From: Lytechinus pictus
Taxonomy: Eukaryota
DNA length: 64,000 bases
Assembly (NCBI RefSeq): GCF_037042905.1
Contig: NC_087250.1
Location: 26,228,001-26,292,000, forward strand
Direction of reading: 5' to 3'
Shown here: piece after piece, positions 13,201-51,414 of the stretch
Layout of the letters: each line of letters starts with the position of its first letter
Position numbering within the stretch: the stretch's first letter is position 1
Translations under genes and position numbers: made by a program
Notes under the pieces: generated by a model
Told to the model about the DNA's origin: nothing
The model's database searches: none
What the model saw: the letters and a program-made list of their open reading frames with translations, nothing else

Positions 13201-15136
13201 CAGAGACAGCATTGTCATTATCTTCTGTATTCTGTACATAATCAAGTGTATTTCTTGTATTATGTTATTATGTTTTGATCAAATAGGTCCATGGTTTTGA
13301 TATATTATTTTGTTGAAGCGTTGAACATAATTTTAATATGACAGTGGTGTAGGTCTTTGAATACATTGAAATAGCAATATGGTCACTTTTAAAAGTAAGA
13401 AGCGTTTGGATCATTCTCTTCCTCTTTCTCTCTCTCTCACTATTTTTCTCTCCCTTTCATGTTTCTATCTCTTAAATTCAATCGTTCTTGGCAAGTCTAC
13501 CCATTATGTTTCCTTTCATTTAATTTCGCAGCCAGTTCTATCTACGTAGTTCAAATTCACCCTTTCTTCAATTTTGTTATGAATTACTATGGGTAACATG
13601 GTTTGTGATATATCTAACTTTGTAATGTAATGTTATTTTGTATCATAAGAAAGCAAAATGCCAATACAAGCTCAATTACAAATTCACCCCCTCACCTCCC
13701 CCATCTCTCTCTATCAGTCCTTGTCTCTCGGTAGTTCTTTAGATCTTCTCCCTCTACGCATCTCTTTCTCACTCCTCCACTTCTCTTTTCCTCTCTTTCC
13801 CAGTATTTATTTGCATTGTCTCTCCATGTTTGTCTATCCCCTTCTCTCTCTTCCCCCCTCTCCCTCTATCATGTTTCTTTGTATTCAGCTTATTTAATTC
13901 CAAAACATACTAAGGTAATTTTCTTTTATTTTTTTTTTTTTTCATACAGCAAAATTCATGTATATATGCAAACACAATCTGCTTGAATACAAGAAAGAAT
14001 ACTTTTCACTTTACAGGCAATATAATTTATTTAAAATAAAAAAAAAACATGAGATTTTTCTCTCTTTCATGTAGTAAATTAATGTACACTTGAGCTGAAA
14101 TGTTCACAAATTATAATTCTATATTTATTTATTCTTTATTTAAACAACTTCAATTCTACTTGTGTAATGTGATCGACAGATCACTGACTACATGGTTAAC
14201 TGGTCACAATGGAATTTCATTGCTAAATATCATATGATTCCTAAACAAATTTAAAATTTATTTATTTATTTATTTTTTAAATGAAATTTCCTACTCTTGC
14301 TGTACTACTTGTCGTCCCAGGCACAATCTGAATTTGGTTTCTCTATTTTGCTGGAAATTACTTGTAACTAGGCACCATTATAAAAAATTCTTTATGCAAC
14401 CTATTCACGTTTATATTCTGGTTAAAATAAAATCATGAACTTTTCTTAATTTATGAATAATTAGGCAAGGGCTCTGCTAAAAGTTCAACTTAATGAGGAA
14501 ATATCAGAGTATTAAGGTCTATATCAGATTGTGTCATGGTAGGGCTACCTTGCTTATTTTGAACTGCAGCATACCTTTAAATAAGTCGTGTCCTAATGCT
14601 TGTATTGTTCCTATTTAATACTATCTAGTATACTATCCAGTAGAGTATTTGAATCATTAATGAATTGCTAATATTGTGGAATTTCTTTTGTGGACGCTCA
14701 TGCACGTAAAGCCTATACCAACAATCTATGAAAAAGCCACAATGAGAAATCAGTGAATTCCAACCTGCCAATGATACGCGTCATCAATCTCAGTTTGAAT
14801 GGAAATGAGTCCAAAAAATAAACATTTTGCGCATTGAACTTGAAAATGATTGAATACCCACCGCTGTACTTATTCATGAACACTTTGTATTTACTTCATA
14901 TCTACTCCAGATTGTGTATGCTATACCATTTGTTTTCTCATTGTGGTTGGATCATGACAAACTATATATTGCATTCAAATGTGATTGAAACGCCCGGTAT
15001 TGTATGTGATTATGCACTGGAAAGTATACGCTAAAAACATGGCATTTTCTCCCTTCTTCCCAGCATGACTAACGATTAGATGTACGGACAGGTGTACTAG
15101 TCCGTAAGTTCAATCTAACATTAATCATGCAACCAC

Positions 15137-15356
15137 CGTGAATTCCGCTCCAAATTATTGTACAACAATACTGTGCTTTATAGCGTTTCGATGTTTTACA
15201 TTGTTGTGATATGCAATTCTGTTTTCTATACTGGACCAATTAAATCAGGCAACCAACTAAATGAACGTGAATTCCACTCCAAATTGTTGTACAACAATAC
15301 TATGCTTTATAGCGTTTCAATGCTGATTTCCATTGTCTGATAGGCAATTCTGTTTT
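15137..15356 (+). repeat. Two ~90-bp direct repeats (period ~129 bp) in the LINE 5' region
   Basis: CGTGAATTCC(G/A)CTCCAAATT(A/G)TTGTACAACAATACT(G/A)TGCTTTATAGCGTTTC at ~15137 and ~15266. Confidence 0.85.
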
Positions 15357-16521
15357 GCCTTATATTCGTTCAATAAGAGAAACGGACATCCTGTGATGCT
15401 TATTCAATCATTTGCTTACCCAACTGTACAGGAAATGTAAACAAAATATTATTAATGTCTTCTCAGTTTCTACTCAGTAGGCCTATCGCCTTATACTCCA
15501 CGTGTTTTATAATCTCATTTAATCGATATTAAATATTAAGAATCACGGATTTGTGAATGGATTTATGCATCATGTATACTTACCTGAAATGATTTTCCTT
15601 TATACCTGATCCCGGTTATACACCGGTATAAAACAAACCTATAACCAAATTCTATAAATATTATATCATAAAGCCATATTTCATAACATGTACTTTTTTA
15701 AGTGTCTATCCGCTTACAGGAGAGAAGAAGCTGATACTTCTATTTATGGAGCACCCCCCCCCCCAAAAAAAAGAAGATATGTGACATGCTAATACTAAAT
15801 ACAGAACGATGGCTATAAGAAACCCTATTAATCTCACAATTACTTGCATTTGTTAACTAGTGTCGCATAACTACAAGTATAAATGTAATCAACAATTGGG
15901 ATATTTACTTTATTCTAAATAGGGATAATACCTTGTTAAACAAACTTAGCCAGATCCGTACTAGCCATTTGATAAAGACATGCTCTGTATACCCTTTCAC
16001 AAATCAGCAAGATTGCCATGAGGTTTGAAACGCTTTCCATTCTTTCTGCTTATCAGAGTGGAGACACTTAATTTAGTAATTTAGCGTTCAGTGCCTTATG
16101 CAGGCTCCGGTATTCCATCCATGTGGAGATGTATTATAATACAAGCCCTACCAAGACTGTTCTTTGTATTTACAGTAACGATCATTTTTCGTTTTAAGAG
16201 GCATAACCACATCAAATGTTTCATGTTCTTAAGCGTTTCGAGCGTGTTCTCGTATTGTTACATGAGTCTCTAAACGAATACTAGCCAAAGGAAACAATTC
16301 CAGAGTTTTATCAATTCTAACTTCTCCACCAAATCCTCTTTGACCATGTTATAATTATGCTTAATATGTATAGATTCTGAAACCAAACCTATACAAAAAT
16401 AAAAATGCCTGGCAACTTTTGTTTTTTTCCATATTCCAACAAAACACGATACACATTGGCGGAGAGGATAGACTGTCGTAAACATAAATTTTATCATACT
16501 TATTTGAATTAATTCACTCGG

Positions 16522-16635
16522 CAGTGGCGGACCCTGACCCGGAGGAGACGGGGCATTGGAGGGGCACTGTATTGTTTGTGAACAATGCTGTGCCCCTCCG
16601 GTGCTTTGTCTCCTCCGGGTCGCGGTCCGCCACTG
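16522..16635. mobile_element. 114-bp hairpin hAT-type MITE, copy 1
   Basis: CAGTGGCGGACC...GGTCCGCCACTG, near-complete palindrome; perfect 8-bp TSD TCACTCGG. Confidence 0.92.
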
Positions 16636-17015
16636 TCACTCGGTGCTTACCAACCGTCCTTAACAATTTGTATTTCTAAGCTAAGTAGAGTTTTTTGTTT
16701 TTTTTTCCTATCGCAAGTTACAAAAATCCACTTAAGGAGCATCTCAGTTGGACATGGTATTCTATCGTGCCCAAGCCGCTTGTTTTTCATGTCATGCATC
16801 ATATCACTCCATGCAAGTATGTTCCCCTGTTATTACCCGTGCGCACACACATTCACTCCCGCACTCGCACAACCCGTCACAATCTACCAACCACAACATA
16901 TACACATACACGCGTGCGCGCGCGCGCGCGCACAAACACACACACTCACACACACCTACCCTCAGTTCACAACACAGTTCTTCATCCACAATACGGTTTC
17001 ATTCAAAAAGTCTAA

Positions 17016-20000
17016 ATGATACCCCGTGACGAAAGCATGCATGACCAAGACATGATAGACTCAGAAAGTAAATATTTCACAATAGAAGATTTTAATAATA
17101 AATTCAACGTTTCACCGAATGATTCTGTTACTACAACCGAAACCAACACATCTTTTAACAGCATTGCTAGTGACCAAAATCATATTTTGTCTAGTCATTC
17201 TTTAGGTTTTTTGCACATCAACGCTAGAAGTTTAAATAAATCATTTGATTCGATTGAATTACTCCTTTCCAATATTAACAATTACCCCTTCTCTATTATC
17301 GGTATATCAGAAACTTGGCTGCACAAAAACTCACCACCTCTATTTAACATTGATAATTATCAAATGATTCGTTCTGACCGTGAGCATGGTAAAGGGGGTG
17401 GCGTTGCCTTGTACACGCGCAATGATATACATTTTAAAGTAAGGGCAGATATACATATCCAAGGCACGGAGGATATTTTCATTGAAATTTTAAACAGTAA
17501 AAATAAAAACATAATCGTAGGTAATGTGTACAGACCCCCAAATGGTGACATTGATTTGTTTTTAGATAAGCTCGATCAATGTCTTAGTTTTATTTCTCGG
17601 GAAAATAAAGACATTTACATAATGGGAGATTATAACATTAATCTTATTAATACTGACAATAATTACACTCTAAAATTTATTAGCTCATTGCTTTCATACT
17701 CTTTCCACCCGCATATTAGTAATCCGACACGAATATCAAGTACGTCTAAAACCCTCATTGACAATATCATTTCAAATGTAACTAACAAAAACTTCATAAA
17801 TGGCATAATTTATTCTGACATTTCGGACCATTTACCTATATTTGTTATTTCTAATCAAGCTAAAATTCAACAACATACAAATAAAAACAAAAAAGAAATG
17901 CACAGAAAAGAAACCCAACGCAACATCGATGCACTAAAAACTGATTTAGCTGAAGAAGATTGGAATGAAGTATTGAACGAAACTAACGCCGATGTTGCTT
18001 ATGAAATATTTATTCAAAAACTCTTACATTATTATAACAAAAACATACCTCTTGTAAAAAATAAGGTCCTTAAAAAGAATAAACAACCATGGATCACAAA
18101 GGGCATTAAACGATCAATATCAACACGGAATAAACTCTATAAGCAAGCTCTAAAAACTCAATGTAAGGTAAAATTTGACAAATACAAAAAATATAGAAAT
18201 AAATTGACATCCATTATTCGTCTATCTCGAAAACTGTACTATTCAAAAAATATAGAGGAAAACGCAAATAATGTTACTTTTTTATGGAAAACTGTCAACG
18301 ATCTCTTAGGTAAGAAAAAACATGATATTGCAAATAGTTTTAATGTTGATGGTCAAGAAATTACTAACCCAGAAACAATTTCAAATGCATTCAATGATTA
18401 TTTCACTAATGTAGGTCCCAATCTGGCCTCAAACATTCATGTAAATGATTCACATTTCACTAAATTCCTATCTCCAGCATGTGAAAACTCACTCTTTTTA
18501 AGACCAACTAATGAACTTGAAATAATTAGTATTGTTCAACAACTGAAATCTAGCAAGTCTTGTGGGCATGACGGAATTAGTGTTTATTTGCTTAAACAAA
18601 TTATTCATTACATTGCTCATCCACTATCCAATATATTTAATCTCTCTCTTTCAACAGGCAAATGCCCGGATTCCCTGAAACTCGCAAAAGTAATACCAAT
18701 TTATAAAAAAGAAGATTCCTCCTTAATCAGCAATTACAGGCCCATATCTTTACTACCATCAATATCTAAAATTATTGAAAAAATTATTTATAAACGACTC
18801 TTTACTTTTCTGAAAAACAATGATATTTTTATTCCTAATCAGTTCGGTTTTAGAGAAGGACACTCAACAGATTATGCCTTATTATATATGTACGACAAAA
18901 TTATTGAAGCTTTCACCAGAAAGGAACATTCGATTGGAATTTACATGGATCTTTCGAAAGCTTTCGATACAATCGACCACAAAATATTAATTCATAAATT
19001 AAAGTCATATGGAATAAGGGGACAAGCACTATCCTGGTTTGAAGACTATTTACATAATCGACAACAATACGTACATTTCCAATCTCAAAACTCACAAAAA
19101 CAAAATATCAAGTGCGGCGTACCACAGGGATCAATTCTGGGACCCCTACTTTTTATTATCTATATTAATGATATCATAAATTCATCCCCAATTCTAAATT
19201 TCATAATTTTTGCCGACGATACCAGTATTTTCTATTCCCATGCTAATTTAGATACTCTAACTCATATTCTTAATTCAGAACTCTCTAAAATATCCCAATG
19301 GTTTAAAACAAACAAACTTTCACTTAACATAAGCAAAACCAATTTTATACACTTTCGAGAAGCTAATCCACACTTACCAGCTCCCAATTTATCAATTGAC
19401 GGTTTACCTCTTACTGAAAAGCACTCTACCAAATTCTTGGGAGTAACAATTGACTCCAATCTAACGTGGAATGAACACATACACAATGTACATACATCTA
19501 TATCAAGAAACATAGGAATAATTTACAAATTAAAAGACTTTCTTTCTGAAAAATCATTATTGGTTCTATACAACTCCCTAGTACTTTCACATATGATGTA
19601 TTGCAATATTGTATGGGGTAACTGTAGTATAACGAAAATAAACTCTCTTCTACTTCTCCAAAAACGAGCAATTCGTAACGTTACTCATTCGCATTATATT
19701 TCCCACACAGAACCTCTATTTCAGCGTTTAAATGCACTTAAAATACAGGATATTCACACTCTACAAACAGGTATATTTATGTTTAGATACACTTACAATA
19801 ATCTTCCATCATTATTCCAAAATCTATTCAATTTAAATTCAAATATACATGCATATCCAACTCGCCACTCTTCTGATTATCATCTACACAACCCCAAACT
19901 TATTCTTGCTCAAAAATCAGTTCGCCATCATGGACCAGATACCTGGAATTCCTTACCACAATACTTAAAACAATGTCCCTCTCTTAACTCATTCAAATCA

Positions 20001-20042
20001 TCCTTTAAAACATTTATGACACGCAAATACAATTCTGAATAA
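17016..20042 (+). CDS. LINE ORF2: apurinic-like endonuclease + reverse transcriptase (1008 aa, uninterrupted)
   Basis: APE motifs HINARSL, ISETWL, YRPP, GDYN, IDNI, SDH; RT motifs YRPISLL, QFGFR, DLSKAFD, GVPQGSILGP, FADD, KFLG; C-terminal WNSLP. Confidence 0.97.
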   Translation: MIPRDESMHDQDMIDSESKYFTIEDFNNKFNVSPNDSVTTTETNTSFNSIASDQNHILSSHSLGFLHINARSLNKSFDSIELLLSNINNYPFSIIGISETWLHKNSPPLFNIDNYQMIRSDREHGKGGGVALYTRNDIHFKVRADIHIQGTEDIFIEILNSKNKNIIVGNVYRPPNGDIDLFLDKLDQCLSFISRENKDIYIMGDYNINLINTDNNYTLKFISSLLSYSFHPHISNPTRISSTSKTLIDNIISNVTNKNFINGIIYSDISDHLPIFVISNQAKIQQHTNKNKKEMHRKETQRNIDALKTDLAEEDWNEVLNETNADVAYEIFIQKLLHYYNKNIPLVKNKVLKKNKQPWITKGIKRSISTRNKLYKQALKTQCKVKFDKYKKYRNKLTSIIRLSRKLYYSKNIEENANNVTFLWKTVNDLLGKKKHDIANSFNVDGQEITNPETISNAFNDYFTNVGPNLASNIHVNDSHFTKFLSPACENSLFLRPTNELEIISIVQQLKSSKSCGHDGISVYLLKQIIHYIAHPLSNIFNLSLSTGKCPDSLKLAKVIPIYKKEDSSLISNYRPISLLPSISKIIEKIIYKRLFTFLKNNDIFIPNQFGFREGHSTDYALLYMYDKIIEAFTRKEHSIGIYMDLSKAFDTIDHKILIHKLKSYGIRGQALSWFEDYLHNRQQYVHFQSQNSQKQNIKCGVPQGSILGPLLFIIYINDIINSSPILNFIIFADDTSIFYSHANLDTLTHILNSELSKISQWFKTNKLSLNISKTNFIHFREANPHLPAPNLSIDGLPLTEKHSTKFLGVTIDSNLTWNEHIHNVHTSISRNIGIIYKLKDFLSEKSLLVLYNSLVLSHMMYCNIVWGNCSITKINSLLLLQKRAIRNVTHSHYISHTEPLFQRLNALKIQDIHTLQTGIFMFRYTYNNLPSLFQNLFNLNSNIHAYPTRHSSDYHLHNPKLILAQKSVRHHGPDTWNSLPQYLKQCPSLNSFKSSFKTFMTRKYNSE

Positions 20043-21455
20043 TTTATGCATATATATAAAAAGAGTTCTACGGGTCTTGGTCAATTTTCAATTTTCTTGG
20101 TAAATTTTTAATTTCTATCTGATCTCATAAACTGTTACATCAGAAAATGAAAAAAGTTAAGTCATAGTATCAAACTTTTCTATCATTTCAAGCTGTATCC
20201 TGGAACCATTCAATAATTCCTAATTAATACTACCCCACACCCTCATATACCGACACACATACACGCACGCCCACTCTCAACACACACACACACTTATACA
20301 TACACATACAATTTTAAATATACATTTGCACACGCGCACACGTTTGCACATGCACAAACACATGCAAATACGTCAAATGCGCACATAATATCAGGCATAC
20401 AAGGTTCTTGCATGTAAATATCGTATTAATAATATCTGTTTATAATTAATTTAAGTCAATGCTTGATTTGTACTTCGTTCTTTTTTGTCTATTTCGCTAA
20501 TACGTTTTGAGGCCGCTACCCTAGTCAAGCACTGCTTATGGTAGCGGTCTCCAGCATTTTTTTTTTTGTCTACTCAACAAAGTACAACTTATAATATTGC
20601 AAACTAATACTATCTATATACATTTTTGCAAATGAATGATTATTTGTATTTTTTTTTTGTAAAAAGAAATGTATCACTATTTTTTTCTTTATGTTGTACA
20701 TTATGTTTGTTAATTATTTCTGTTGGAAAAATGCTGAAATAAAATCAAATCAAATCAAATGTCTATCATGGTTTATATCCCTCTCCTTTCCCTCTCTTTA
20801 TCCATATACAATGTTCATCTTTCTTTATTTATCTCTCTCTTTCTCCGTCTTTATTCTACTTCTCTCTTTCTCTAACTCCCCACTACTTTCCCCACCCCCC
20901 TTCGTCTGTCAACATCGTTCTATATATCATTTTCAACCATTACTTCTTGTCCTACATAATTATGTAGATGAAAAATGAACTGCATATAACGCCTTTTGTT
21001 GTTTTACTTTTAATTTCATTCATTTACGCTGACCAAATTACTTGATTATAAAATTACATAAATTACGTGATTATTTTGTGCATTAAAGTCACCCTCCTCA
21101 TCACCATGCCGATGACCTCAAAATAAACCCTGCAAAGATTTCGATCAATTTAAAGTATCAAACATTTAGTCAGATCGGTTGATCGGTTGATAGTTGGTTT
21201 TAAGATCAGTAATGTGTATACAACTGAATAGATTGGCAATCCTTTCTCGAAATGTACTTAATTACCATAACCCATAGTCATGATGGTAGAGATAATGACT
21301 TTCTATTTCCACATGACTATTTTCTGCTCTCAAGTAGGTGAGAATAATTTTGTCTTGATTAAAGTCCATAGATCAACAAAACATGGCTTTTATCATATTC
21401 AACATTGTTAGTATGTACTTCATAACAAAGCATAATGAAAACATATTATATTTAA

Positions 21456-22051: not shown

Positions 22052-22165
22052 CAGTGGCGGACCGTGACTCGAAGGAGATAAATGATTGGAGGGGCACTGT
22101 ATTCTTTGTGAACAATGCTGTGCCCCTCCAATGCTTTGTCTCATCCGGGTCATGGTCCGCCACTG
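22052..22165. mobile_element. 114-bp hairpin hAT-type MITE, copy 2
   Basis: Aligns ungapped to copy 1; TSD GTAACCAT/GTTACCAT; absent from the paralogous site at ~9390 (GGACA GTTGCCAT AGTAAC). Confidence 0.92.
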
Positions 22166-27783: not shown

Positions 27784-28202
27784 TTCAACTATGCCGGGGA
27801 TTAAAAATTTCGTGATGAATTAAAAAAAAAATTTGAAAAAAACATTCTTATTTTGTACCATTACTTTAAATTAAACATCTTATTAAGGGTTATAAAAAGT
27901 TTTCTAATAGGATTGATGTTAAAAAAAAAAAAAAAACTTTAAACCTGCAAACGGAGGTCTCGACATAAAATCCCCCTCAAATAAAAATATAATAAAAAAA
28001 TCAGCAAACATGCAAAACAAAAATGTTTATTGATCGTAACTATTCTCAATTTAATATCATTGCAAGTCTGTCCTAACGCGCTGCATATCATACAGAGAGG
28101 GAGAAAGAGAGGGGGGGGGGGACTTATTGGTCAACTCAATATGAATTTTTTTTTTCAAAGTTCCATTCTATTTCTTTTTTAACACGTAGGATATCACCAG
28201 GA

Positions 28203-30146
28203 ATGCTAACTAAAATGGCCACCAACGACAAAGACGTCCGACTTCAGGTACCTTTTTGTCCACTCTGTCTCGAAAGTTTCAACAAGGCAACCCTCCTCAA
28301 CTGTGGCCATACATTCTGCATGAACTGCTTGGAGGTGTACGATGACAAGAATCGCCATCTTGACCACATGGTATGTCCTGTATGCAAGGAGTGTACTAAT
28401 CTTGGGGCCGAGCGGGTTGCAGAACTCGCTCCTAACTACCTGGCCAGGAATCTGGAGGAAGATTTGCACTTGTTGACAGAGACTCTCTCGCCGAACGTTT
28501 GCTTAGAACACGGTAGGATTTTCAGGGATATCTTCTGTGAAGAATGTCAGGAATTTGTTTGCCTCTATTGCTTCATGGACTGCCATCAGGGACATGCCAT
28601 CAACAAGAAAGAGGAGTTAGATAGAGAATTTGAAGACAGGGAAAGGGCTCTTGTTCGTCAAAGCGATACCAGGAAGTCCCAGATGGAAAAGGCCATCAAT
28701 AGTACTGAGCAACACAACAACAAAATATCTTCTCATCTGAATGCTTTGGAATCACAGATTAGGGACCAGTTTGAACAAAAGAGAGCCATACTCCTGAAGA
28801 ATGAAACATTGCTCTTGGACACTGTAAATGAACATAGATCAGCATTAAACAAGGAATGTGATAACTGGGTTGATCACAACAAGCGGCTAATAGACAAGAT
28901 AAACAGCTCGTTGTCGGTGATACGACGTAAAGCGACTCGCTTTGTTGATTTAAGCACCCTTGAAGCCCATAACCTACTTTGTGGTAACCTAGAGAACCTA
29001 CTAGTAGAAAGTGTTGAAGGAACATCTTTGAGTGATGTTGGTCAAGAGATCAGGATAATACATTTTTGTCCAGCAGATGACAAACTTCTCGAGCTTGGTC
29101 ATCTGGTTTTCAGGGAAGTCAATTACTCAGCTAGTAAGGTCCACGCTGAAAATCAGTGTAGTGAAGAAGACGATAGTACCTCCTCAAAAGAATGTAATCA
29201 AGAAGATGAAAGTAGCACCTCAACTGTTATTGAAGCTGAAGCTCCTGCAGAATGTAGCATCGAAAGTCGCGACAATGCCATCGCTAACGGGGAATCAAGT
29301 GATGCCCAAGCGGTTGTACTGCCCTTACCAGCCCAGATAATGAGAACCTACACACTGAGTATTGCAAGAAAGATAGATTTAGCAGGGTACATGCGAGGCA
29401 TTGCTGCCCTTTCCCCTGATTCTGTCGTGGTCTGTTATGGATTGAACCGAAACGGTGCAGATCGTTTTTCGGTGTCTGGAGAAAAGAAACAATATTTGAA
29501 GGGTAAAGTCGGGCAGGTCTGGGATATTGCCTTCTTAGGCGATGGGAGGTCCGTCGTTTCGCATGGTGCTCAAGCTTGTAAGGTGTACGACGTCAACAAT
29601 ACATTCACCGGTCTTCAATATACCCGCAAGGAAGGCAATAACTACTTCAGCTTATGCAGTGACCGCAACGGGAAGATCTACGCAGTCAATAACAATCCGG
29701 AGATCTACATCTTCGAAGGCACAACTGCTAACCCTCAGCAAATCGTGTCGACGGGGAACATTAAGCCAGAACACATCTGTATCACCAGATCCGGGTGGAT
29801 GATCACTACCACGTGTTGCATCACACCAAGTCGGATCAACCTCTACGATAGGCAAGGCCATGTTGGTATCTCGCTTACTGCAAGTGATAACCATGAATAT
29901 CTGTATGCTGCTGTGGATAGCGAGGAGAGGGTACTGGTGGCGAGAGTTCATGAGAGATCGACCGCGTTCAAGCTGGCGCTGTACAGAATCCAAGAAACAA
30001 GACTCGTAGAGGAAAAGGCGTTTGCTCCAATCAAACTCCCGCGACAAATCAAATGCAAATGGTGTTACATGGTAAGTCTCACACCAAACATGCTCGCGTT
30101 TGCCACGTTGGATCATCACTTGTATTTTATTGAGCTTCTGATGTAG
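28203..30146 (+). CDS. TRIM-family E3 ubiquitin ligase (RING, B-box, coiled coil, acidic linker, NHL/beta-propeller-like C-terminus), single coding exon, 647 aa
   Basis: C3HC4 RING CPLC..CGHTFCMNC..CPVC; B-box CLEH..FCEECQEFVCLYC..HQGH; helical Q/E/L-rich segment; beta-rich repeats (GIAAL, WDIAF, YAAVD). Pyrimidine tract + AG at 28188-28189 implies an upstream non-coding exon; second ATG at 28215 has better context. Confidence 0.92.
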   Translation: MLTKMATNDKDVRLQVPFCPLCLESFNKATLLNCGHTFCMNCLEVYDDKNRHLDHMVCPVCKECTNLGAERVAELAPNYLARNLEEDLHLLTETLSPNVCLEHGRIFRDIFCEECQEFVCLYCFMDCHQGHAINKKEELDREFEDRERALVRQSDTRKSQMEKAINSTEQHNNKISSHLNALESQIRDQFEQKRAILLKNETLLLDTVNEHRSALNKECDNWVDHNKRLIDKINSSLSVIRRKATRFVDLSTLEAHNLLCGNLENLLVESVEGTSLSDVGQEIRIIHFCPADDKLLELGHLVFREVNYSASKVHAENQCSEEDDSTSSKECNQEDESSTSTVIEAEAPAECSIESRDNAIANGESSDAQAVVLPLPAQIMRTYTLSIARKIDLAGYMRGIAALSPDSVVVCYGLNRNGADRFSVSGEKKQYLKGKVGQVWDIAFLGDGRSVVSHGAQACKVYDVNNTFTGLQYTRKEGNNYFSLCSDRNGKIYAVNNNPEIYIFEGTTANPQQIVSTGNIKPEHICITRSGWMITTTCCITPSRINLYDRQGHVGISLTASDNHEYLYAAVDSEERVLVARVHERSTAFKLALYRIQETRLVEEKAFAPIKLPRQIKCKWCYMVSLTPNMLAFATLDHHLYFIELLM

Positions 30147-43549: not shown

Positions 43550-44798
43550 CTTACCGTGTTTACATGTGATCGGCTTTTGGTTCAGAGCCGCGAGCCGATG
43601 CAGAATCGGCTTTTGGGTTTATCTTGCACCGCGTTTACACGCTGCATCGGCTCGCGTATCAGAAGCCTGAAACGATCCGCGCACCAACAATATACATGTA
43701 CGTCATAATAAAGACAACGCTGGATCCATGCGCTTACATGTACGTCATACGCGTTTCCGTTTTACACCCTGGCGAAGGCATTTTCCGCAAAAATAGCCAC
43801 AAAGCGACTAGTGAAGAGTCTACGTCTACGTTTGTTTACACAATCAGCTGAGCGCGCGATCCAAAAGTCCGCACCGAAGATATCCGCAGAACATACGTGC
43901 AAATGTAGCTGAGCTTATAGACCAAAAGCTTCAGTCTCTGTATTTTGGTTGTTCCGCTGAACTATATACGTTGGCTTCATGATTTTTTTTACTTTATCGC
44001 ACATGATCGTTTATATGAATGAAAACGAATAATAGCTAAAATATTGAAAAATAAAAACACATAATTACTTTTTTTTCATATTATATCTATCCTTATATCT
44101 ATCATATCTGTCTATCCACTATCTATGTTATAAATCAATCTATGGTACTACATGATATATCTATCTGTTAATTTGTCTATCTACTCTGTCTCTCTCATTC
44201 TCTATCTACCTATCTATCTGTCTATCTATCTATCCACCTAACATCTATCTCTCAAATTCTCTATCTATCCATCTGTCTCTCTTTTATTTCTCTCTATCCA
44301 TCTGTTAATCTACTCATGTGCAATATCAACACTGCTTCGACTTCCTTCGGGAGTCTATTTCCTCAGCTCTACTTTTCCCTTTTTTGTGCTCGATTCGATT
44401 CAATTACTACTTCATTTACTTGTTACCATTGTTAAATGTCATGTATTGCATAATGATTTTTTTTTCTGTAGGTTGCCTCCTATTCTCTTTCAAATTCCAC
44501 CTCTTGCTTTCCCTTCTCTTTGTCTTATCCCAATCTCTTTCCCTTCTCTCACCTCTTTCTTCTTAATCTTTCATTCCGCTTTTTTCTTCTTTGGTGACAC
44601 TTTACTTTTGGCCTTTTGTATTTATTCATGATACATTTCTTTTTATCTGTATGAATTTGTATTGTATTTGATATTTATTTATAATGTTTACTTTATATTT
44701 TAATATATATATATATATATATCTCAAATTCTCTCTATCTATCCATCTGTCTGTCTTTTTCTCTCTATCCGTCTATGTATCTATCTCTCAAATTATCA

Positions 44799-44832
<34 letters not shown>

Positions 44833-45548
44833 ATATCTATCTATCTATCTATGTAACTACAGTATCTATCTATTAATCTTATCTGTCTCTCCCCCTCTAT
44901 CTATCCATCTGTCTTTCTCTAGTTCTCTCTCTCTATCAATCTATCTATCTATCTTCTATCTATCTATCTATCTATATATATGTAACTGCGGTATCTATCG
45001 ATCTGTTAATTTGTCGCTCTTCTCTGTCTCTCTCATTCTTTATCTATCTATCCATCTAACATCTACCTATCTCTCAAATTCTCTATCTCTCTCTCTCTCC
45101 CTCTCTCTATCTATCTATCCATCTGTCTGGCTTTCTCTATTTCTCTCTATCTATCTATCTATCTATCTATGTAACTACAGTATCTATCTATCTGTTAATT
45201 TGTCTATCTTCTCTGTCTCTCTCATTCTTTATCTATCTATCTATGTATCTATCTATCTATATATATATCTAACATCTATCTATCTTTCAAATTCTCTATC
45301 TCTCTCTCCCTCTATCTATCTCTCCATCTGTCTGTCTTTTTTTTCTCTCTTTGTCTATTATTCTTTTTCCGTCCATATATATATATCTATCTATCTATAA
45401 CATCTCTCCATCTCTCAAGTTCTCTCCCCCATCTATATATCTATCTATCTATCTTTTATCTATTTATCTATCTATGTAACTATACAGTATCTATCTATCT
45501 GTTAATTTATCTATCTTCTCTGTCTCTCTCATTCTTTATCTATCTATC

Positions 45549-45602
<54 letters not shown>

Positions 45603-45637
45603 ACATGTACCTATCTCTCAAATTCTCAGATTCTCTA

Positions 45638-45670
<33 letters not shown>

Positions 45671-45809
45671 ATCATCCAGCTGTCTTTTTTTTTTCTCTCT
45701 CTATTTCTCTTAATCCGTCCATATATATATATATCTATCTATCTATAACATCTCATCATCTCTCAAATTCTCTCCCCCCCCCCCATCTATCTATCTATCT
45801 ATCTATCCA

Positions 45810-45844
<35 letters not shown>

Positions 45845-45849
45845 ACTTC

Positions 45850-45880
<31 letters not shown>

Positions 45881-46515
45881 CTACCTATCTATCTATCTAT
45901 GTCTCTATCTATTTATCAGTCTTTTATATCTATCTTTCGGCATCTAAGTGTATCAATCCATCAAACTTCAATTTTCTTTCTATTATATGAATCTGTTTAT
46001 TTTTATTTTGTCTGTCATTCTATTCATTTAGTTAATAATTTATATTTAGAAAAAAAAAACTTTTTCATAACTTTTCATTAAAAAAACGTAACTGCAAAAG
46101 CATGTTCGGATTTCACTCATATGACTGCTCTCTGTACATGAAGTGCCGAGGAACTCTATGCTCTGATCAGTAACTGTGCAGATTGCATGCGGTGGTGGGA
46201 CTCACCTGTGTCGCACGCTGCAACCAGCGACGTGTGTAGACTCTTCACTAGTCGCTTTGTGGCTATTTTTGCGGAAAATGCCTTCGCCAGGGTGTAAAAC
46301 GGAAACGCGCGTACGTCATAATGGTAAAGTAAATTAAATGCGCTTGAATTGCCGATGCAGAATCGGCTTTCTGTTAACACGCAGAAAAAACCGATTCTGC
46401 ATCGGCACGCGGTTCTGAACCTACTACTTTGATGGTGCAAAATTGCCGATTCTGCACCGAGAGCCGATGCAAATTACACGCAATGAAAAAGCCGATGCAG
46501 CGTGTAAATTGTTGC
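43550..46515. mobile_element. Fold-back DNA element with long inverted arms enclosing a (TCTA)n field
   Basis: Perfect 73-bp inverted repeat 43751-43823 / 46236-46308; repeated GCCGATGCAGAATCGGC motifs in both arms. Confidence 0.7.
44090..45920. repeat. Complex (TCTA)n/(TC)n simple-sequence field
   Basis: Long TCTA and TC runs with a recurring higher-order unit (TGTAACTACAGTATCTATC..TGTTAATTT). Confidence 0.95.
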
Positions 46516-47667: not shown

Positions 47668-47685
47668 CTGCACACATGCAATGTA

Positions 47686-48496
47686 CAGTGCGTCCCAGAA
47701 AAAACGAAACCGAGATTTAGCGATGATTTATCATAACTTAATCACAAATAAAATAGACAAATGACCTACCAATGTAAAGCTTAGGATCTCTTCTTTCATC
47801 TGATATTAAATAGATTATTTCTCCTTAATGCATGAGTGAGCAAAAACAATTTGAAGAGGGGATACCAAAAACTCATTTGGCGGGTTGTATCCAGCTTTCA
47901 AAAGGAAAACCACATTTAAAAAAATGCAATATCTGCTCTTTAATTTGATACCTCAATTACAGAAAATGGTCAAGAAATAACAAAATTCTGGTTATTTGAA
48001 ATAAGGCTTGAATTTCAATAATTTCATAAAATGAAGTACAGGCTAGCGTTCAAACTCACTCGACACTCCGTTTTGTTTACGATCAGCCATGCATTAAGTC
48101 TTTTGTTAGCCATGCGATAGCTTCTGTGGGAAACCGGTGAAAACAATTTATTTAATGAAATTATGGAGATTCAAGCCTTATTTTAAATAACCAGAACTTT
48201 GTTATTTCTTGACCATTTTCTGTAATTGAGGTATCAAATTAAAGAGCAGATATTGAACTTATAAGACATGTGATTTTCTTTTTGAAATTCATATACCCCC
48301 GCCAAATGAGTTTTTGGTATCCTTTCTTCAAATTGTTTTTGCTCACTCATGTGTGAATGAGGAATAATCTAAGTAATATTAGATGAAAGAGGAGATTCTA
48401 AGCTTTACATTGGTAGGTCATTTGTCTATTCTATTTTTGATTAAGTTATGATAAATCATCGCTAAATCTCGGTTTCGTTTTTTCTGGGACGCACTG
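47686..48496. mobile_element. Tc1/mariner-type palindromic MITE, 811 bp
   Basis: TA|CAGTGCGTCCCAGAAAAAACGAAACCGAG...CTCGGTTTCGTTTTTTCTGGGACGCACTG|TA; arms complementary for >300 bp. Confidence 0.93.
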
Positions 48497-48542
<46 letters not shown>

Positions 48543-48622
48543 AATGGAATGCCTAGCTTAAATCAAGTTTCCCCAGAGCTATCTGCCCTTATTTGGAAAA
48601 AAAAATGGTAATGCCGAAAACA

Positions 48623-48694
48623 TGTCTCTGCCGGGAATCGAACCCAGGCCCCCAGCTTTGAACACCGGTGCCTTAACCACTAGACCACAGAGAC
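48623..48694 (-). tRNA. tRNA-like gene (72 nt) with TCA anticodon; probably repeat-borne or pseudo, functionality unknown
   Basis: GTCTCTG TG GTCT AGTGGTTA AGGC A CCGGT GTTCAAA GCTGG GGGC CTGGG TTCGATT CCCGG CAGAGAC A, followed by TGTTTT and a T10 run. Confidence 0.6.
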
Positions 48695-48715
48695 GGGTTA
48701 GTGGCGGTGCCGGGT

Positions 48716-49410
48716 GAAAATGGCAGAGGCAAAAATGGCAGAGGTAAAAATGGCAGAGGTAATAATGGCAGAGGTAAAAATGGAAGAGGTAAAAATGGCA
48801 GAGGTAAAAATGGCAGAGGTAAAAATGGCAGAGGTAATAATGGCAGAGGCAAAAATGGCAGAGGTAAAAATGGCAGAGGTAATAATGGCAGAGGTAAAAA
48901 TGGAAGAGGTAAAAATGGCAGAGGTAATAATGGCAGAGGTAAAAATGGAACAGGTAAAAATGGCAGAGGTAAAAATGACAGAGGTAAAAATGGCAGAGGT
49001 AATAATGGCAGAGGCAAAAATGGCAGAGGTAAAAATGGCAGAGGTAATAATGGCAGAGGTAAAAATGGAAGAGGTAAAAATGGCAGAGGTAATAATGGCA
49101 GAGGTAAAAATGGAAGAGGTAAAAATGGCAGAGGTAATAATGGCAGAGGTAAAAATGACAGAGGTAAAAATGGCAGAGGTAATAATGGCAGAGGCAAAAG
49201 TGGCAGAGGTAAAAATGACAGAGGTAAAAATGGCAGAGGTAATAATGGCAGAGGTAATAATGGCAGAGGTAATAATGACAGAGGTAATAATGGCAGATGT
49301 AATAATGATATAGGTAATAATGGCAGAGGTAAACATGGCAGAGGTAATAATGGCAAAAGTAAAAATGGCAGAGGTATTAATGGCAGAGGCAAAAATGACA
49401 GAGGTAAAGA
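48716..49410 (+). repeat. 15-bp minisatellite (AAAAATGGCAGAGGT)n, ~46 units
   Basis: Directly visible; ~5 inverted units at 51048-51131. Confidence 0.97.
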
Positions 49411-50129: not shown

Positions 50130-51414
50130 TAACACATTGAAATAGACGATTTCGGGATTTTTTGAACCACTTACATAACTTGGATAACACAAAAATAACA
50201 AAACGTTCTGCAATAAAAGTAATTTTTCATATTTCAACATCATGATATGGATCCGAATAGATATTGATATGATACGTATATAGTTAAATGTAAATTATAT
50301 AATAGCAACTAGTGTTCATTTTTTTCAGAGTAATACCTCATTGCAGCTAGTCCAAGTGGATATCAGGTTCTTTATTATGGTAACGGGTACCGCATGAATT
50401 TTGAAATGTGTATCGAATCAGGGATTTTAATTCATAGGTGTTTCTTAGGTATCATTCTATCGACCTGTTTTGAAGGAGAAATTCACCCTGACGACTGGTT
50501 TACTGTACAAATAGCAATGAAAATATATTGGTGAAGGTTTGCAGAAAACCCATCAAAGATTAAGAAAGTTATTAGAAGTTTGAGTTTTTGATCTGTGACA
50601 TCATATACTAGTAAATACATCGTATTTTATGCACCAAAATGTCTACTTTTCATTTGTTTTAATCAGTGGTTCATGATGGCTAAGTAAAAAATCTTTCAGG
50701 AGCGGATGTGAAATTGTTTGTATGTTAATATACTTAAGGTACAATTAAAATCATTTGCATTTTTTTTTAATGACATTTCATTGACATTTTGTTATTACAC
50801 CATATATGGAGAAAACTGCTCGCAAATGAAGTCCCCAAAATTTGAGTAGCTTTTTAAATCTTTGATGGATTCCCTAAAATCCTCACCAAAATCATTTAAA
50901 TAAACCTTATGTCAATTTCCCCTGTAATGAATTAAGTACAATATTTGGGATCCAAAGTGTTCTTCAAATTTTAATATTAAAAGAGCGATTTGACATGAAA
51001 AGGTCGTGCATGTAAGTCCAGGGAAAAAATACCAAGTCAAGTGTTATCATTTTTACCTCTGCCATTTTTACCTCTGCTATTTTTACCTTTGCCTTTCTTA
51101 CCACTGCCATTTTTACCTTTGCCATTTTTACGCCGAGCCTTAGTGGCTAGGGCGACCCCGATCCAACTGACCGACAGATAAACAGATTTTCGACACTATA
51201 CCAATTATAGCTTCCTTTGTCGGATGTAGGTGGATTTTGAACAATGACAAGCCGCCATTATTATCTTCATCCATTCCTTTCACAAAATATTTAAATAAAA
51301 GAGTTGCCAAAGCTGTTGTATATGTATAATTTCACACATACTGTATATATATATATATATGAGTGGGAATCATTCTTTAAAGCGTAATACCGATCTCGGT
51401 AATATAATAGATTT

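Follow-up and report, generated by a model that had tools for sequence, protein, structure and literature searches.

The window that we analyzed, a stretch of 64,000 nt from the genome of Lytechinus pictus, contains a palindromic 114-bp MITE (positions 16522–16635, + strand) that, as judged from sequence comparison, lies in the ORF1-ORF2 spacer of a 5′-truncated LINE copy. This MITE copy carries a cluster of A>G substitutions that is best explained, and very probably arose, by ADAR editing of the LINE-borne hairpin, with the edits fixed in the germline by retrotransposition. RNA editing is normally not inherited; the write-back of RNA edits into inherited DNA apparently happened here more than once.

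The LINE copy (13874–20760, + strand) belongs to a young two-ORF element. The TSD sequence, TCTATCATG, is found on both sides of the copy, at 13865–13873 and, past the (AAATC)n tail, at 20762–20770; the original prediction of a TSD-bounded LINE containing the MITE on its sense strand was thus correct. Positions 13874–17015 are part of the spacer, of around 3.4 kb, and the MITE ends 380 nt before the start codon of ORF2 (17016–20042), which is open, codes for 1008 aa and contains the Pfam domains Exo_endo_phos and RVT_1. A short stem-loop in the 3′ UTR (20509–20552) shows no cluster of changes and is conserved down to the diverged copy L048. The full-length element is about 8.3 kb in three copies (L032, L035, and L047), each with a 344-aa ORF1 that has a coiled coil and a weak lead to Transposase_22. 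ORF2 is likewise 1008 aa in L031–L034 and L036, and it was kept open in six copies of the family, five of them with the MITE. The hallmarks of TPRT are all present, namely 5′ truncation, a 3′ tail, a TSD and dispersed siblings.

The spacer also contains a 90-bp tandem duplication (window 15137–15225 and 15266–15356; 87% identical) that is common to the siblings, and in two diverged LINE copies (L049 and L050, at G000:C2:54.8 Mb and C25:56 kb) 200 bp of 3′-end sequence precede the body in inverted orientation. The ORF2 region corresponding to window positions 17272–17286 is an apparent insertion hot spot in the siblings L051, L052/L064, L057, and L060: three copies contain nested elements of 867 bp, 6.6 kb and 2.7 kb, whose insertion points are only some 10 bp apart, two of these elements sharing one TTAA, and the 5′ truncation of a fourth copy falls in this region as well. 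Because their 5′ ends and nested inserts differ, L051 and L052 were ruled out as alleles of one locus. Elsewhere in the window, positions 28077–30146 (+ strand) contain a long open frame, of 689 aa from stop to stop and apparently without introns, coding for a RING and a B-box (TRIM-like).

The MITE is flanked by an 8-bp TSD, TCACTCGG, at 16514–16521 and 16636–16643. The same MITE, at the same site and with the same TSD, is present in 16 LINE copies, which are dispersed and have differing 5′ truncations, whereas three older copies (L043, L044, and L045) have an empty site with a single TCACTCGG. Since the older copies are empty, the MITE was inserted once, as DNA, and then multiplied by retrotransposition. 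The only change in the MITE that is not A>G, a G>C at 16534, is a mark of this single insertion and is present in all 15 LINE-borne copies that cover the site. The prediction that a DNA transposon had spread through an RNA intermediate was therefore borne out, in that the product of one insertion is carried in 16 LINE copies.

The ancestral state of the MITE is given by its free copies. One of them, hereafter copy 2 (22052–22165, + strand; TSD GTAACCAT/GTTACCAT), is in the same window and served as an internal control; it aligns without gaps to the LINE-borne copy 1, as anticipated. The family was collected by a genome search in which the best 40 of 950 candidates were scored, and its free copies, which number in the hundreds, have A wherever copy 1 has one of the six clustered changes, so the family consensus is A, not G, at these positions. 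Fifteen free loci (L016–L030) are mutually identical (15/15), each with its own 8-bp TSD, and their common sequence was taken as the ancestral reference. Terminal inverted repeats and 8-bp TSDs, as in hAT-type MITEs, were found in L016–L030 and in most of L074–L113, and from the length of the TSD we take the 114-bp element to be a probable hAT-type MITE. The seven differences originally predicted for copy 1, six of them A>G, were the same seven found against the free family sequence, and a comparison with the family likewise confirmed eight mixed substitutions in copy 2, none of them A>G. Among 41 sampled free copies, A>G represents 8 of 151 substitutions, with a maximum of two per copy; this sample was built on the first 40 non-LINE loci among the 100 matches listed, of 684 arm matches, and is biased to copies that are intact across the searched 17-mer (one, L077, is a 17-nt match only).

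The MITE is predicted to fold into a 46-bp stem plus a short inner stem, with a hairpin energy of −115 kcal/mol for the free form and −106 kcal/mol for copy 1. In the LINE copy of the window it is the sole strong hairpin by fold prediction: the most stable 120-nt window reaches −97 kcal/mol, against only −28.6 kcal/mol for the most stable one that lacks the MITE. Other elements were noted as well. The 2.7-kb insert in L057 (G000:C10:24.28 Mb) has MITE-like ends (CAGTGGCGGA...) and internal tandem repeats, and is a possible relative that would depend on the same transposase. At window positions 43750–46309, perfect 74-nt inverted repeats surround some 2.4 kb rich in (TCTA)n and probably delimit a non-autonomous DNA transposon, and positions 47681–48501 contain a fold-back element with arms of 204 nt and 114 nt that are 93% complementary; the latter adjoins a 15-bp tandem array (48578–49400), with an inverted relative at 51035–51146.

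The six A>G changes of copy 1 (+ strand) are AAA>GGG in the 5′ arm (16550–16552) and, in the 3′ arm, AA>GG (16600–16601) and a single A>G (16622). G is present in 15/15 of the LINE-borne copies covering 16550 and 16551, in 14/15 at 16552, in 16/16 at 16600–16601 and in 14/16 at 16622. The idea that an edited MITE in a LINE transcript had been fixed by retrotransposition is supported by this pattern, with a correction: being common to 16 copies, the Gs go back by inheritance to an ancestor of these LINE copies and did not originate on the transcript that gave rise to the window copy. The changes affected 6 of the 21 As in the MITE but only 7 of 1,255 As in the remaining LINE (Fisher, p 1.5e-8; p 1.7e-5 if only the four sites common to every copy are counted), and the branch used for the LINE background, between the empty-site and the MITE-bearing lineages, is at least as long as that of the MITE. 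They are also directional, since T>C affected none of 26 Ts (p 0.005) and C>T none of 32 Cs (p 0.002). Outside the MITE, conversely, the 61 differences between the empty-site and MITE-bearing lineages are mixed, with 7 A>G and 16 C>T, and no focal LINE copy has three or more A>G within 60 nt.

Each of the six changed As faces a T in the stem, and all six changes keep the pairing, as G-U. This would also be expected from ordinary mutations filtered by selection, whether to keep the hairpin through G-U wobble or to weaken it in order to escape dsRNA silencing; the success of the edited lineage, with 16 copies against the three empty-site copies found with the MITE-site region, would agree with either. 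However, C>U, the most frequent change in the LINE (16/61), generates G-U pairs just as readily, yet it is absent from the stem lineage (0/32 Cs), and for this reason selection for G-U pairs fails as an explanation. Moreover, the rate is some 50 times that of the background, and selection has no means of raising it in copies that, like L115 (described below), are single and probably dead. Selection as the source of the changes is therefore largely refuted, and we regard it as highly improbable, although later selection could have favored the edited lineage. A role for the removal of an upstream ATG by the change at 16601 was dropped, since none of the other sites affects an ATG and the one in the loop stays. 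Likewise, the 3′-UTR stem-loop (20509–20552) contains a G-U pair, but this was dropped as evidence of editing, since no change is seen there even in a relative of 91% identity.

The changes are confined to LINE-borne copies, in agreement with the original prediction. The GG motif at 16600–16601 has 15 exact matches in the genome, 15/15 in this LINE, whereas the motif with any two bases at these positions gives 684 arm matches; this genome-wide exact pattern found no free copy with GG, the sampled free copies contain no clusters, and we found no free-standing MITE subfamily with the six Gs. A second pattern scan of the genome, with G in the AAA of the left arm, gave 19 and 24 matches, compared to 708 arm matches for an A-or-G version. 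The G-pattern matches correspond to 15 focal copies, seven free copies with a single G (among them L117–L122, without any cluster), a chance match (L114, dropped as a MITE) and two new clustered insertions, L115 and L116. A single G is also found at C16:5656179.

The MITE in L115 lies some 640 nt past the RT frame of its LINE, within the 3′ UTR, and shows A>G at MITE positions 22, 25, 29, 30, 31, 80, and 101, together with two C>T; this amounts to 7 of 21 As vs. 12 of 672 in the flanks (p 3e-7). The changes at positions 22 and 25 give rise to a G-run (L115:5011–5024, minus strand) that is 7 bases longer than expected, which may reflect a homopolymer expansion seeded by editing or an assembly error. 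In L116, the MITE is inserted in reversed orientation between ORF1 and a 1265-aa ORF2 with endonuclease, RT, and zf-RVT domains; the host, at G000:C20:13.41–13.43 Mb, is an L1/Tx1-like LINE with a poly(A), and tandem repeats fill its ORF1-ORF2 spacer, of some 5 kb. Compared to the 13 nearest free copies, this MITE has only four differences, all of them A>G on the LINE sense strand (4/25 As vs. 3/2,318; p 3e-7); positions 60 and 80 were removed from the changes by the comparison with its own free subfamily. Both insertions have their own MITE TSD and empty-site siblings, although no TSD could be assigned to the L115 and L116 LINEs themselves, and the RTs of L115, L116, and the focal LINEs are only 22–30% identical to one another.

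Taken together, the three insertions contain 17 sense A>G and no T>C, with A>G making up 6/7, 7/9, and 4/4 of their substitutions; the changes are on the LINE sense strand even in the reversed L116, and the AAA run (16550–16552) was changed in all three. The changes of the three founders are all in the predicted stem, with none at the five As of the loop or inner stem. An RT gene is found within 1.5 kb of 3/3 clustered insertions and of 0/16 unedited free copies (p 0.001).

That the Gs could come from a pre-existing MITE subfamily or from assembly errors is suggested by two observations: a lone G at the equivalent of position 80 is spread in a free subfamily (8 of the 13 nearest free copies), and hence one such G can arise without a LINE; and the long G-run of L115 may hold a homopolymer error. 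Nevertheless, exact-pattern searches found multi-G motifs in no free copy, 16 separate loci agree in the Gs, and a contig from run X5, possibly the assembly's own sample, spans 16200–16582 and shows the Gs on the haplotype of L052. As far as the sensitivity of exact-pattern searches goes, this explanation is refuted, and its chances of being right are negligible.

A hairpin-specific process acting on DNA or cDNA, such as RT misincorporation in stems, adenine deamination in hairpin DNA or a transcription-coupled strand bias, would require no RNA editing; all three clusters passed through a LINE RT, and ADAR activity on this RNA is deduced from its signature. However, mutagenesis of the DNA hairpin would also strike the free copies, which form the same hairpin and have no clusters, and is accordingly disfavored. 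Deamination of A in the first-strand cDNA would in turn appear as T>C on the sense strand, which is found in none of the 17 changes, and the LINE flanks are mixed (7 A>G of 61) and devoid of clusters of three or more A>G. No RT error mode known to us would produce A>G alone in stems. We thus consider this kind of process very unlikely. DNA editing by APOBEC, expected to leave G>A on the sense strand, was discarded as well, because the changes are A>G relative to a known ancestor.

In a variant of the editing explanation, cDNA-mediated gene conversion would have returned the edits to the very locus into which the MITE had inserted as DNA, with no daughter copy. It would still need ADAR and RT, and is relevant mainly to the single copies L115 and L116, for neither of which was a MITE-bearing parent or sibling found among the best 40 candidates scored per search; in addition, L116 contains ORF1, ORF2, and a poly(A) tail and could transcribe itself. 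(An unedited MITE-bearing parent of the focal LINE family was not found either.) Against it, the focal family shows its edits in 16 copies that are dispersed and differ in their 5′ truncation; L115, as a truncated daughter would, lacks any ORF of at least 150 aa ahead of the RT frame; and the parents may be missing from a single assembly. In-place conversion is, consequently, also very improbable, and retrotransposition of edited LINE RNA remains the preferred explanation.

The sibling LINE copies should show different or nested A>G patterns if editing recurred, and they do. The As at 16546 and 16548 (+ strand), unchanged in the window copy, are G in 2 and 6 of the 15 LINE-borne copies, respectively, in a pattern that is both nested and recurrent. 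On a tree of 19 LINE copies built with the MITE left out, G at 16546 (L039 and L052) needs two changes and G at 16548 (six copies) needs four; AU tests rejected a single origin for each (p 0.0099 and p 1.8e-6), for groups picked after the tree was seen. The 15 remaining As of the MITE underwent at least five later gains, vs. 55 site-events for the 2,318 As elsewhere (p 3.5e-5). The homoplasy at 16546 and 16548 could alternatively stem from recombination or conversion between copies. Additionally, the most basal copy, L053 (with a support of only 81/87), has A at 16552 and 16622, which suggests a stepwise gain of Gs; the G at 16622 forms a CpG, and its reversion is possible.

The sequence context of the changes is partially that expected for ADAR. 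In copy 1, the six G-preceded stem As are indeed unchanged and no changed A has a 5′ G, as had been noticed, which gives 6/10 As changed without and 0/6 with a 5′ G (p 0.034); this avoidance is weak and not significant when the three insertions are pooled (14/33 vs. 3/16; p 0.12), and the presence of G at the G-preceded positions 16546 and 16548 of some siblings indicates that the 5′-G rule is not absolute. A 3′ A is favored (7/10 As changed with it vs. 10/39 without; p 0.021), as is a 5′ A (8/9). The invertebrate ADAR motif, as described in PMC5625713, combines a depleted upstream G and a preferred downstream A, and the 3′-A preference seen here is in line with it. By sequence homology, the host genome encodes an ADAR2-like protein: an exon with two dsRBDs and a deaminase domain has human ADAR2 as its best match (E 1e-121). 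There are at least four loci with an adenosine-deaminase domain (L068–L073; on C3, C6, and two on C2), of which that on C3, the one looked at in detail, is ADAR2-like. In RNA data alone, the LINE flanks had 0 reads in two of three runs and 2–4 reads in the third, a depth at which no editing of the LINE RNA was seen, and the MITE reads come almost only from free copies; at most 15 of 94 RNA reads lack A at 16600, 16601, or 16622, which by itself we do not take as evidence of editing.

These data are consistent with the following sequence of events. A single MITE inserted into the ORF1-ORF2 spacer, generating an 8-bp TSD that the older copies lack. In the LINE RNA, it would fold into a near-perfect 46-bp stem, predicted to be the only long duplex of the copy in the window, and ADAR would deaminate As in the middle of the stem, preferentially in A-runs, as the signature suggests. 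Inosine is copied as G (PMC5224506), so that the RT would place C opposite inosine and yield A>G on the sense strand, an established chemistry. The altered element then spread to at least 16 copies, and its hairpin, now containing G-U pairs, would still be a substrate and later gain more Gs, as the homoplasy indicates. ADAR would thus have acted on LINE RNA before reverse transcription over several rounds, the write-in to the germline probably taking several rounds of retrotransposition, and the same process would have operated independently in two other LINE families.

The ancestor is exactly known from the free copies, the entry of the MITE into an RNA life cycle is marked by the empty-site LINE relatives, which serve as outgroup, and this natural experiment ran three times with one substrate, in unrelated LINEs and once reversed; together, these features make an unusually well-controlled case of germline A-to-I edits in non-LTR retrotransposons. 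Equally distinctive is the recurrence of the edits in a lineage that went on expanding. The case also involves a cut-and-paste transposon copied by retrotransposition, and makes testable now the editing of germline retrotransposon RNA by ADAR before reverse transcription, its rate per round, and whether it amounts to restriction or tolerance. It is quite possible, although we would stop short of calling it probable, that ADAR recurrently mutates active LINEs in the germline, guided by RNA structure, and would ratchet any long hairpin that these pick up from A to G in each round, at tens of times the background rate and with hot sites common to unrelated LINEs, while the element continues to spread. 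If so, passenger palindromes would be dated genomic recorders of germline ADAR activity and of its site preference, and RNA editing would be a regular route to heritable DNA change that erodes the dsRNA of mobile elements.

In the literature searched, which included few subscription journals, we found no paper describing ADAR edits fixed in the germline, whether in LINEs or in LINE-borne MITEs, and a precedent is possible. The closest parallels that we found each share some of the features seen here. ADAR-linked A-to-G hyper-editing was described in the avian retroviruses RAV-1 (Felder, 1994) and avian leukosis virus (Hajjar and Linial, 1995), both cited in PMC8586724. As in our case, clustered sense A>G changes in a retro-element were attributed to ADAR and recorded after reverse transcription; those viruses are exogenous, however, whereas here it is non-LTR retrotransposons that carry the edits, fixed in the germline, a DNA transposon travelling as a passenger provides the substrate, and the edited element kept multiplying, with further edits recurring along its tree. 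A palindromic Harbinger repeat of Xenopus tropicalis, self-folding and a prime ADAR target, is hyper-edited (PMC5625713). It is also a short palindromic DNA-transposon family, and the invertebrate motif of that work is partly matched here; editing was, nevertheless, seen only in RNA, while we read it from DNA and only in LINE-carried copies. LTR retrotransposons edited by APOBEC at the DNA level (PMC4866542; PMC2873906) likewise show heritable, strand-biased and clustered scars left by a host deaminase. These are, by contrast, G>A changes derived from deamination of C in cDNA, in LTR elements of vertebrates and with no tie to a duplex; DNA transposons and invertebrates were negative controls in those studies. 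With regard to the host elements, the focal MITE resembles hAT-type MITEs in its terminal inverted arms and 8-bp TSDs, and the focal LINE resembles the Jockey-superfamily LINEs with a Type II ORF1 (coiled coil, RRM, and CTD; PMC4120745) in its APE and RT ORF2, its coiled-coil ORF1, and its short-repeat tail, but differs from them in the inter-ORF spacer of around 3.4 kb. Finally, ADAR1 reportedly restricts human L1 independently of editing, and more than 2.5 kb of L1 RNA was reported as unedited (PMC5224506). In both cases ADAR would contact the LINE RNA; unlike in human L1, editing appears here where a foreign long hairpin sits, and the element was not stopped.
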